Below are positions 9,047 to 11,190 of a stretch of DNA of 14,399 nucleotides, in pieces. Below the pieces are notes generated by a model. It ran no database searches, had not been told where the DNA came from, and saw nothing but the letters and a program-made list of their open reading frames with translations. The DNA comes from an uncultured Myxococcales bacterium. Lineage in GTDB: Bacteria > Myxococcota_A > Polyangia > Haliangiales > Haliangiaceae. Position numbers and translations under genes: made by a program. The stretch spans positions 128,001 to 142,399 of the forward strand of contig CALOFI010000005.1 of assembly GCA_942492525.1 (NCBI GenBank), read 5' to 3'. Position 1 is the first letter of the stretch; every line of letters begins with the position of its first letter.

Positions 9047-10279
9047 ATGAGCTCGATCCCCAGCCACCGCTTCCGCGACGACGTGCTCGCCGGTCTCTCC
9101 GCCCGACCGCGCACGCTGCCGTGCAAGTACTTCTACGACAAGGCCGGCTCGCTGCTGTTCGATCAGATCTGCGAGCTGCCCGAGTACTACCTGACCCGCG
9201 CCGAGACCGCGCTCTTGCAGGCGCACGCCGACGATCTCGCGGCGGTGATCGGGCCCGACGCGGTGCTGGTCGAGCTGGGCAGCGGCAGCTCGGTCAAGAC
9301 GCGGCTGCTGCTCGACCGCCTGCCGGCGCTCGCGCGCTACGTCCCGGTCGACATCTCGGCGCGTCATCTGCATGACACCGCGGCGACGCTGCGCCGGCGC
9401 TACCCGGAGCTGCGCGTGGAGCCGGTGGTCGCCGACTACGCCCACGGGCTGCCCACGCACGCCGCGCTGGCCAGCGCGCCGGGCAGCACGTCGACCGTGT
9501 TCTTCCCGGGCTCGAGCATCGGCAACTTCGCCCCGGCGGAGGCCGCCGCGCTGCTGGGTCGGATGCGCGCGCTGGCCGGTCCGGGCGGCCGCCTGCTGGT
9601 GGGCGTCGACGCCGGCACCGACGAGGCCGCCGTGCGCGCGGCGTACGACGACGCCGCCGGCGTCACCGCGGCGTTCAACAAGAACCTGCTGGTGCGGATC
9701 AACGACGAGCTGGGCGGCACGTTCGCGCTCGCGCAGTTCCGCCACGAGGCGATCTGGGACGGCGAGCACCATCGCGTCGAGATGCGCCTGGTCAGCACGG
9801 TCGCGCAGTCGGCGCGCGCCGCGGGGCAGACCTTCGCCTTCGCCGCGGGCGACGTGATCGTCACCGAGCATTGCCACAAGTACGGCGTCGAGCGCTTCCG
9901 CGCGCTGGCCCGCCAGGCCGGCCTCGAGCCCGGCCGCCTCTGGAAGGATCCCAGCGGCCGGATGGCGATGCACGAGCTGCTGGTTCCGGACGCCGCCAGC
10001 GCGGCCGGGACGGCCGGCGCGGCCGGGGTGGCCGGCGCGGCCGGCGCGGCCGGGGTGGCAGGCGCGGCCGGCGCGGCCGGGGTGGCAGGCGCGGCCGAGC
10101 GCAAGACCGGCTCCCGACCGCGCGTCGGCGGCCGACGCAGTCGCCGACGCCGACGCAGTCGCCGACGCAGTCGCCGACGCCGTCGCAGTCGCCGACGCCG
10201 TCGCCGACGCCGACGCCGACGCCGACGCCGACGCCGACACGGACCAGCGCGGCCTCGCAGCAAGCTCCGACTGTCCTGA
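9047..10279 (+). CDS. egtD: L-histidine N-alpha-methyltransferase EgtD, with an ~85-aa low-complexity C-terminal extension of uncertain reality
   Basis: GGAGG at 9035-9039 precedes ATG 9047. The hallmark [26 protein letters not shown] and the SAM-MTase motif [11 protein letters not shown] are present. The conserved EgtD domain ends near ...[16 protein letters not shown] (~nt 10020). The frame then continues with no stop through (AGAAGVAGA)x3 and an Arg-rich run ([12 protein letters not shown]...) to the TGA at 10277-10279, inside repeat unit R1. No stop codon exists in any + frame between ~9960 and 10277. Confidence 0.8.
10013..10093 (+). repeat. 27-nt tandem repeat x3 (gccggcgcggccggggtggcMggcgcg)
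   Basis: Three head-to-tail copies read from the sequence. In the egtD frame they encode AGAAGVAGA x3. Confidence 0.7.
10128..10245 (+). repeat. hexamer/12-mer microsatellite (GACGCAGTCGCC / GACGCC)n
   Basis: gacgcagtcgccgacgccgacgcagtcgccgacgcagtcgcc...gacgccgacgccgacgccgacgccgac, read from the sequence. It translates as poly-Arg/Ser in the egtD frame, PT-rich in frame 1 and DA-rich in frame 3. Confidence 0.7.
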
Positions 10280-10410
10280 GCCGGCCCGAGCGCCAGCGAG
10301 GGCCGTGTCGAAGGACCAGCGCCGCGTTCCGTCGCGCCGCCCTGGCGCTTCGACACGGCGACCGTCGCTTGCGCTCCGGTCGCCGGCTCAGCGCGAGCGG
10401 ATCATGGGCG
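10260..10410 (+). repeat. structured direct-repeat unit R1 (151 nt, nested inverted repeats), most divergent copy
   Basis: Consensus: gcaaSctccgactgtcCTGAGCCGGCccgagcgccagcgaggGCCGTGTCGAAGgaCCAGCGCcgcg-loop-cgcGCGCTGGcgCTTCGACACGGCgaccgtcgcttgcgctccggtcGCCGGCTCAGcgcgagcggatcatgggcg. Perfect inverted repeats of 10 bp (ctgagccggc/gccggctcag), 12 bp (gccgtgtcgaag/cttcgacacggc) and 7 bp (ccagcgc/gcgctgg) are nested around a central loop. R1 has a 1-nt insertion and a diverged central loop. Confidence 0.7.
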
Positions 10411-10511
10411 CGGCGGCCGCGGCGGCGACGGCCGCGGCGGCCGCGGCGGCGACGGCGGCGACGGCGGCGGCGGCGGCGGCGGCGGCGGCGACGGCGACGG
10501 ACCGCGTGCGA

Positions 10512-10661
10512 GCAACCTCCGACTGTCCTGAGCCGGCCCGAGCGCCAGCGAGGGCCGTGTCGAAGGACCAGCGCCGCGTCCTGCACGCCGCGCTGGCGCT
10601 TCGACACGGCGACCGTCGCTTGTGCTCCGGTCGCCGGCTCAGCGCGAGCGGATCATGGGCG
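10512..10661 (+). repeat. structured direct-repeat unit R2 (150 nt)
   Basis: Near-identical to R3 and R4 (about 2 substitutions: gcaaCctcc, gcttgTgctcc). Preceded by the conserved cgcgtgcgagcaa. Confidence 0.7.
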
Positions 10662-10703
10662 GCGGCGGCGGCGGCGCCGGCGGCGGCGACGGAACGCGTG
10701 CGA

Positions 10704-10853
10704 GCAAGCTCCGACTGTCCTGAGCCGGCCCGAGCGCCAGCGAGGGCCGTGTCGAAGGACCAGCGCCGCGTCCTGCACGCCGCGCTGGCGCTTCGACACG
10801 GCGACCGTCGCTTGCGCTCCGGTCGCCGGCTCAGCGCGAGCGGATCATGGGCG
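10704..10853 (+). repeat. structured direct-repeat unit R3 (150 nt)
   Basis: Same unit. The spacer before it (10662-10703) is only 42 nt of GCG-rich low complexity. Confidence 0.7.
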
Positions 10854-10973
10854 GCGGCGGCGACGGCGGCGGCGGCCGCGGCGGCGACGACGGCGGCGGC
10901 GGCGGCGGCGACGGCGGCGGCGGCGACGGCGCCGGCGACGGCGGCGACGGCGACGGCGACGGACCGCGTGCGA

Positions 10974-11123
10974 GCAACCTCCGACTGTCCTGAGCCGGCC
11001 CGAGCGCCAGCGAGGGCCGTGTCGAAGGACCAGCGCCGCGTCCTGCACGCCGCGCTGGCGCTTCGACACGGCGACCGTCGCTTGCGCTCCGGTCGCCGGA
11101 TCAGCGCGAGCGGACCATGGGCG
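10974..11123 (+). repeat. structured direct-repeat unit R4 (150 nt)
   Basis: Same unit with substitutions gccggAtcag and cggaCcatgg. It is followed by a (GGC)n run at 11124-11190. Confidence 0.7.
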
Positions 11124-11190
11124 GCGGCGGCGGTGACGGCGGCGGCGGCGGCGGCGGCGGCGGCGGCGGCGGCGGCCACCGCGGGCGCCA
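11124..11190 (+). repeat. (GGC/GCG)n trinucleotide microsatellite, as also found in the inter-unit spacers 10411-10511, 10662-10703 and 10854-10973
   Basis: ggcggcggcggtgacggcggcggcggcggcggcggcggcggcggcggcggccacc. The spacers are variable-length mixes of GCG, GCC and GAC triplets. Confidence 0.7.

Follow-up and report, generated by a model that had tools for sequence, protein, structure and literature searches.

The stretch of DNA analyzed here (the window throughout; 14,399 nt, positions 128,001 to 142,399 of contig CALOFI010000005.1 in assembly GCA_942492525.1, from an uncultured Myxococcales bacterium) carries between the genes egtD and asnS an array of four copies of a ~151-nt unit, R1 to R4, all in one orientation (10259-11123) and pairwise 96-99% identical. 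The units were located by repeat finding, Tandem Repeats Finder (TRF), and BLAST, all three concordant, and both flanking genes were confirmed by Pfam. In these respects the locus was as described in a first-pass annotation made from the sequence alone, which had proposed four same-orientation copies of ~150 nt between egtD and asnS. The feature is real and statistically unambiguous. The pattern CCTGAGC-N(0-30)-TCGAAGG was observed 4 times, with 0.03 expected, and the whole interval 9986-11225 proved to be tandem-repeat DNA by TRF. From left to right, the features of the locus were as follows.

7601-9034: EgtB, upstream of egtD
9047-10279, plus strand: egtD reading frame, 410 codons; PF10017 covers amino acids 9-310; the stop is the TGA inside R1 (10277-10279)
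9986-10102, plus strand: 27-nt tandem repeat (9-nt sub-period), 3.4 copies; begins exactly at the natural egtD end; translated, it gives the AAGAAGVAG repeats of the EgtD tail (TRF, translation, end of homology)
10114-10238, plus strand: C-rich GCCGAC / GCAGTC 12-30-nt tandem repeat (TRF)
10259-10410, plus strand: R1, 152 nt; the most diverged unit, with a different loop, a 1-nt indel, and the 7-bp inner inverted repeat broken; holds the egtD stop (10277-10279)
10411-10510, plus strand: spacer 1, 100 nt of GGC/GCG/GAC triplet microsatellite (TRF)
10511-10661, plus strand: R2, 151 nt; three perfect inverted repeats all intact
10662-10702, plus strand: spacer 2, 41 nt of GGC microsatellite (TRF)
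10703-10853, plus strand: R3, 151 nt; three perfect inverted repeats all intact; reference unit for folding
10854-10972, plus strand: spacer 3, 119 nt of GGC/GAC microsatellite (TRF)
10973-11123, plus strand: R4, 151 nt; outer 10-bp inverted repeat broken by a C>A change
11124-11176, plus strand: terminal (GGC)n tract after R4, ~19 copies (TRF)
11203-11217, plus strand: GCCGTG.TATGCGT motif, 12-25 nt 5' of the asnS ATG; common to the window and two related loci (L015 and L016); right-hand edge of the lineage-specific repeat DNA
11226-12644, plus strand: asnS, 472 aa; PF00152 and PF01336

Start-to-start spacing of the units was 252/251, 192, and 270, and the spacers (100, 41, and 119 nt as measured) were, as annotated earlier, triplet microsatellites differing in length at each junction. 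The near identity of R2 to R4 and the divergence of R1 were likewise borne out: R2-R4 differed from one another by 2-3 mismatches, whereas R1 was set apart from these three by 4-7 mismatches and an indel of 1 nt, most of which fell in the loop. The perfect inverted repeats (CTGAGCCGGC, 10 bp; GCCGTGTCGAAG, 12 bp; and CCAGCGC, 7 bp), which the first-pass annotation had assigned to every unit, were all intact only in R2 and R3, the 7-bp repeat having been lost in R1 and the 10-bp repeat in R4. The two arms inside one unit were ~77% identical, with bulges, and all four units shared these bulges. Similarity between units continued into the flanking tract, as GACGGA(C/A)CGCGTGCG, and a 283-nt tract-unit-tract stretch was 93% identical between the R2 and R4 neighborhoods. 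A G/C polymorphism at unit position 6 alternated along the array (R1=R3, R2=R4).

Folding of one unit (R3) confirmed the long bulged hairpin of ~130 nt proposed earlier. As RNA, the plus strand gave a folding free energy (dG) of -109.5 kcal/mol (z -5.2) and the minus strand one of -109.2 (z -5.0), such that both strands folded equally well with no strand asymmetry; as DNA, the unit gave a dG of -59.4 (z -5.3). The fold of 9980-11230 contained four separate hairpins, with the upstream C-rich tract (10114-10238), which is 73-87% complementary to the G-rich tracts 3' of the units, pairing with these downstream tracts.

The locus in relatives and related foldback elements

In the locus of the closest relative (L015), window 478-7688 and 11202-14399 had colinear counterparts at ~80% identity; window 7689-11201 (egtB, egtD, and the repeats) was replaced there by a 1-kb epimerase gene encoded on the opposite strand, with asnS following after a gap of 45 bp. 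Loci L016 and L017 presented a further arrangement, with a POT transporter and an open reading frame (ORF) without a Pfam match between the AlkZ-like gene and asnS. Homology to L015 and L016 resumed at window 11202-11203, and the region upstream of asnS in the closest relatives consisted of 45-650 bp of unrelated sequence. Neither BLAST nor an nhmmer arm profile detected the unit in L015, L016, L017, or the nearest egtBD loci (L041 and L042); a candidate relic of a decayed unit upstream of asnS in L016 (9794-9853) was not significant, 52 of 200 shuffles scoring as well. Judged by these comparisons, the array is lineage-specific.

The interval from the AlkZ-like gene to asnS was a variable spot in Kofleriaceae (window 7689-11201 versus L015 8991-9975, whose epimerase is NAD-dependent, and L016 8470-9980). 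Just 5' of asnS in L016 and L017, at 9897-9974, lay a 9-nt tandem repeat (CCCGCGCCG, ~5.8 copies), and short GC-rich tandem repeats seem to recur at the junction before asnS.

Farther afield, the unit was sought in 185,579 species-representative genomes (GTDB) and JGI metagenomes with a degenerate 21-mer from the hairpin core, which a true unit would match twice, and in plasmids, phages, and viral contigs by the searches given below. The exact window unit was found in none of these, and the 21-mer matched singly only (14 loci in the species-representative genomes and 23 in the metagenomes). Three true relatives were recovered: L031 (a soil metagenome contig), L029 (a metagenome contig), and L002 (a metagenome-assembled genome labelled ‘uncultured proteobacterium’). 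Their genomes, at 58-63% GC, were clearly unlike that of the window host (window, 73% GC). The other 21-mer loci were seed-only coincidences, nearly all in coding sequence. The GCGCC variant of the 21-mer, that of the unit right arm, recurred in one coding context, tcgtt..ccgat.cggcg...GCCGTGTCGAAGCGCCAGCGC (L005, L006, L008, L023-L025, L027, L032, L037, and L039), and this conserved protein motif in many unrelated bacteria explained most of the ‘chance’ matches.

The three relatives had in common a ~55-nt arm, gtcaTCCTGAGCCGGCGAG(c/t)AGCGCGAGCCGTGTCGAAGGACCAGCGCgaagcg. Its identity was 96-98% among them, and the match to the window unit reached 86% over 49 nt. The shared blocks, TCCTGAGCCGGC and CAGCG.G.GCCGTGTCGAAGGACCAGCGC, stood at fixed offsets, with TCCTGAGCCGGC and CAGCG.G.GCC well beyond the seed. 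The L031 element was a solitary inverted repeat of 142 nt between the convergent xfp (phosphoketolase) and DUF2333 genes; its predicted stem of ~48 consecutive base pairs (dG -133, z -15) resembles a palindrome of DNA more than a structure evolved as RNA. The L002 element, 199 nt long and 3' of nadC, had a different second arm, and L029 had a single arm only. The 12-nt terminus GTCATCCYGASC occurred exactly twice, inverted, in both L002 and L031 and nowhere else in 42 loci; these elements are therefore bounded by terminal inverted repeats (TIRs), in the manner of miniature inverted-repeat transposable elements (MITEs), a class of short non-coding elements (<~400 nt) delimited by such repeats. 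The termini of the canonical element read TGTCATCCTGAGC. In the window units, no match to GTCATCCYGASC within 2 mismatches rose above chance, and each whole unit was still an imperfect inverted repeat. Both window arms aligned to the canonical arm, each with an extra 8-14 nt between CTGAGCCGGC and AGCG; the presence of the same extra segment in both arms implies that the ancestor was a symmetric, extended-arm variant.

Further searches gave no additional members. Searches of plasmids and phages with the window unit (blastn), of plasmids with the canonical element (blastn), and of viral contigs for the canonical arm (exact scan) returned no match, and the nhmmer arm profile detected no members beyond those above in all DNA retrieved here. 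One coding-looking stretch (L019 733-772; ...AVSKGQREAA...) was 88% identical to the canonical arm over 42 nt, extending 6-7 nt past the seed, and could be a coincidence or could mean that the arm derived from a gene fragment. Literature searches for the element termini, for peptides that spurious ORFs over comparable repeats would encode, and for myxobacterial MITEs or repetitive extragenic palindromic (REP) sequences returned only primer coincidences or general reviews, and no name for the element family was found in Rfam or the searchable literature. A possible wider ‘GTCATCCTGAGCGAAGCGAAGGATC’-type superfamily gained no confirmation from the literature searches and serves as a lead only. 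The elements thus far recovered point to a small, apparently unnamed TIR-bounded foldback family that spans bacteria of very different GC content.

Origin of the array

We favor, with moderate confidence, the reading that the array is a non-coding, lineage-specific minisatellite whose unit is a decayed MITE-like foldback element amplified in place. The units are 96-99% alike, the arms within them only ~77%, and the bulges are shared by all; arm decay therefore came before amplification, and because the units are far more alike than the arms, amplification was recent and local. The intact relatives of this element are single copies lying just 3' of genes in other soil bacteria and bearing 12-bp TIRs (GTCATCCYGASC). 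One extended-arm copy would have come to lie at the egtD 3' end in the Kofleriaceae lineage, with triplet-repeat tracts on either side, and its arms and termini would have degenerated. The block of unit plus GGC/GAC tract would then have been duplicated to four, through slipped-strand mispairing of the triplet tracts on either side or unequal recombination between them, after which the tracts would have changed length independently. The 283-nt duplicated block does take in the flanking tract, and the spacer lengths have diverged since, as expected of microsatellites. A striking 1.2-kb structured repeat block would in this way be explicable as the local amplification of a dead palindromic element.

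Two of the interpretations offered in the first-pass annotation converge on this reading. A recombination or slippage hotspot agrees well with the data, given an interval that is tandem repeat from end to end, its absence from the closest relatives, and the much higher identity of units than of arms. Membership of a REP/MITE-like family held in substance: three unrelated loci carry TIR-bounded foldback elements with a homologous arm, but the window variant was found nowhere else, its termini are degenerate, and it falls outside REPs in the strict sense (see below).

The consequences of such an array are probably incidental. It supplies the egtD stop and adds a low-complexity tail of ~95 residues (Ala/Gly-rich, then Arg-rich), and four very stable hairpins between egtD and asnS would be predicted to hinder read-through or 3'-exonucleases, as REP and MITE sequences do.

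Several observations weigh against local amplification of a mobile element relic, or against an effect on expression. The junction sequences alone are compatible with tandem duplication as well as with insertions repeatedly targeted to GGC tracts. No transposase domain, including that of REP-associated tyrosine transposases (RAYTs; Y1_Tnp), was present in the eight window ORFs scanned by Pfam. No target-site duplication (TSD) was apparent by reading at the flanks of L031 and L002, and the flanks of the window units are microsatellite, in which any TSD is unreadable. The related loci number only three, all found through an exact match to the 21-mer seed, and in GTDB the one genome that had a canonical copy yielded one locus only. 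As to expression, a scan of 9800-11400 gave no terminator-like site, the units being followed by GGC repeats and not by T runs, which led us to reject the hairpins as intrinsic terminators, and a simple scan of the interval gave no sigma-70-like promoter.

A rival possibility is that of four independent, one-orientation insertions of an active non-autonomous element, either a MITE or a RAYT-mobilized REPIN (a REP doublet forming a hairpin), targeting the GGC/GAC microsatellite. We consider this unlikely. The relatives are indeed TIR-bounded and lie in differing genomic contexts, all four units sit in triplet tracts of one kind, and the position-6 alternation is not a pattern of simple nearest-neighbor duplication. 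The window units, however, lack the 12-bp termini, have bulges and indels common to all four, and share similarity that runs on into the tract (93% for tract-unit-tract); the 14.4-kb window gave no further copy, nor did ~70 kb of DNA from relatives, and the negative results for transposase domains and TSDs given above count here as well. Bacterial MITEs and foldback elements include Correia/NEMIS, RUP, and Nezha. The canonical relatives resemble these in being 142-199 nt long, non-coding, TIR-bounded, foldable into one long hairpin, and situated at gene 3' ends in varied contexts; they differ in that no TSD was seen at L031 or L002, and the window copies differ in lacking termini and in being tandem and not dispersed.

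A more far-reaching proposal would make of the same data an undescribed TIR-bounded foldback family (termini GTCATCCYGASC, core GCCGTGTCGAAGGACCAGCGC) in distant soil bacteria, expanding here via GGC/GAC microsatellites into a hypervariable locus, akin to a variable-number tandem repeat (VNTR), that tunes both egtBD-asnS read-through and EgtD tail length. This we regard as quite unlikely.

Very unlikely, too, is a strict REPIN cluster, that is, inverted REP doublets that depend on a RAYT transposase for their maintenance and have multiplied into an ordered cluster. The architecture does fit published examples: in Pseudomonas fluorescens SBW25, REPINs form ordered tandem clusters of near-identical hairpin repeats, flanks included, with up to four units and >700 bp (Bertels & Rainey 2011, PMC3116915). 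As in the window array, inverted doublets in tandem and in the same orientation were copied together with flanks, up to four and over >700 bp of extragenic DNA, and singlet arms occur too; among the elements studied here, both single arms (L002 and L029) and REPIN-type inverted doublets (L031 and the window units) exist. REPs, however, are ~20-25 nt long, as opposed to the ~50-60-nt non-palindromic arms found here. Folded alone, the arms gave z-scores of +0.46, +1.03, +0.44, and -0.21, none significantly palindromic, with -2.72 for the window right arm; being single arms of ~50-60 nt and not short palindromes, they fail as REPs in the strict sense, whose basic repeat is an imperfect palindrome of 20-40 nt. 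In addition, the family here appears to be of low copy number, no RAYT is known for the window case, and the setting (triplet-microsatellite spacers in a myxobacterial host) is different.

The array also invites comparison with the mycobacterial interspersed repetitive unit (MIRU)-VNTR minisatellites, reportedly described by Supply and colleagues in 1997. MIRUs are not long palindromes, and in them small ORFs link the stop codon of one flanking gene to the start codon of the other. The two systems have in common tandem repeats, tens to ~100+ bp long, between co-directional genes in a high-GC genome, with an upstream frame that ends in a repeat, and an expectation of copy-number and length variability; the array differs in that the ATG of R4 (11117) lies outside the asnS frame. 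If length-polymorphic, the array could serve as a marker for strain typing in Kofleriaceae. Direct repeats with dyad symmetry and variable spacers are, likewise, properties of CRISPR arrays, which the first-pass annotation had rightly dismissed: CRISPR repeats are 21-50 nt, with unique spacers of similar size and usually cas genes, versus 151 nt for the unit here, the spacers of the array are unequal, low-complexity triplet repeats of 41-119 nt, and no cas domains were detected in the window ORFs scanned. The array is distinguished by its long arms, its triplet-microsatellite spacers, and its myxobacterial host.

Tests for RNA and protein products

Functional structured RNAs, whether a tandem array of small RNAs, as suggested in the first-pass annotation, or a cis-acting leader or processing platform for asnS or egtBD, would suit very stable hairpins that stand between two co-directional genes and are each followed by an ATG and a G-rich tract. 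The analyses nevertheless left the suggested small RNAs unsupported, and we hold a structured-RNA function to be highly improbable. Against Rfam, the unit had 0 matches at gathering thresholds; relaxing the cutoff to E<=10 brought up no more than generic hairpin models of miRNA precursors (15-25 bits versus thresholds of 40-100); a tRNA/tmRNA search found none. Among the copies, none of the 57 predicted pairs showed a compensatory change, 2 were broken, and 2 were changed on one side, which is as neutral decay predicts and is uninformative on selected structure. To these may be added the equal folding of the two strands, the absence of the array from the closest relatives, and the retention by asnS, 3' of the array, of the conserved GCCGTG.TATGCGT motif. 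From its position and conservation, this motif may be a proximal promoter or short-leader element for asnS. It is overlapped by a perfect 8-bp palindrome (CACGGCCA ggcg TGGCCGTG; 11189-11217).

Some features of the locus could also reflect an assembly artefact, in the form of collapsed or expanded repeats or a chimeric egtD-asnS join. The region is extremely repetitive and GC-rich, and the normal egtD stop is missing. We see only a slim chance of this, as substitutions distinguish the units from one another and the spacers are unequal in both length and sequence, unlike a simple collapse, and synteny with the relatives is intact on both flanks.

The egtD frame itself warrants description here. 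EgtD homology and the catalytic domain ended near 9986-9995, and the closest homologue (P0121, 71% identity) ended 3 residues past MHELLV (window aa 313, position ~9995). Among the 120 matches listed, all EgtD homologues were 301-352 aa long and had no tail. In the window, by comparison, the frame lacked a normal stop and ran through ~95 extra codons of repeat DNA, encoding AAGAAGVAG repeats and then an Arg/Ser-rich run. The tail to R1 is probably translated simply for want of a stop, which makes it a by-product of the array and not its function; the long frame reflects either a genuine tail or a problem with the sequence or its assembly. EgtD is probably mis-extended as it stands (410 aa versus ~325 aa in homologues).

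The interval 9986-11225 carries no coding signal. Third-position GC, ~0.97 in the real genes of the window, fell near 9990 and resumed near 11250, and within the units codon-position GC was flat (0.71-0.76). The description of the gap as non-coding in the first-pass annotation therefore stands with regard to coding signal, but not with regard to the egtD frame, which is without a stop until the TGA in R1. Each unit does contain one TGA and one ATG, as noted earlier, and Gly/Asp-rich micro-ORFs ending in ...RAS(K/N)LRLS and a stop do exist; the TGA of each unit is in the egtD frame. The TGA-to-TGA distances are, as stated, multiples of 3, but this follows from a ~150-nt unit combined with triplet-repeat spacers and is not evidence of coding. 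The translated unit had no relative among 5.8 billion proteins, 41 word-sharing candidates having been retrieved, none of which scored. On the asnS side, homologues placed the host in Kofleriaceae (Myxococcota), the best match (P0001; 472 aa, covering 100% of the query) being only 89% identical. These homologues start at the equivalent of 11226, and the open frame through the array is therefore not an AsnS extension; the R4 ATG (11117) is in a different frame from asnS. A protein-coding array, be it a repetitive EgtD C-terminal tail, an AsnS N-terminal extension, or Gly/Asp-rich micro-ORFs, is accordingly scarcely credible, even with the asnS frame open over the whole array, the egtD frame continuing to R1, and the TGA spacing in multiples of 3. 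Annotating the array as an RNA gene, as CRISPR-like, or as a protein would be a mistake.

Elsewhere in the window, the AlkZ-like gene (6141-7736, minus strand) contained an 18/30-nt tandem repeat (6209-6348) that encodes a Lys/Ala/Pro-rich C-terminal tail, PTKAKAPTKAKAPANAKSPPKAPPNAKAPAKAKAKARAPAKAKAKP, and its ORF was 531 aa long, compared with 486 and 469 aa in relatives; tandem-repeat expansion is thus not limited to the egtD-asnS gap. A 668-aa ORF at 573-2579 had a strong coding signal and no Pfam match, with counterparts in the same place in L015 (674 aa), L016, and L017 (650 aa in the last two).

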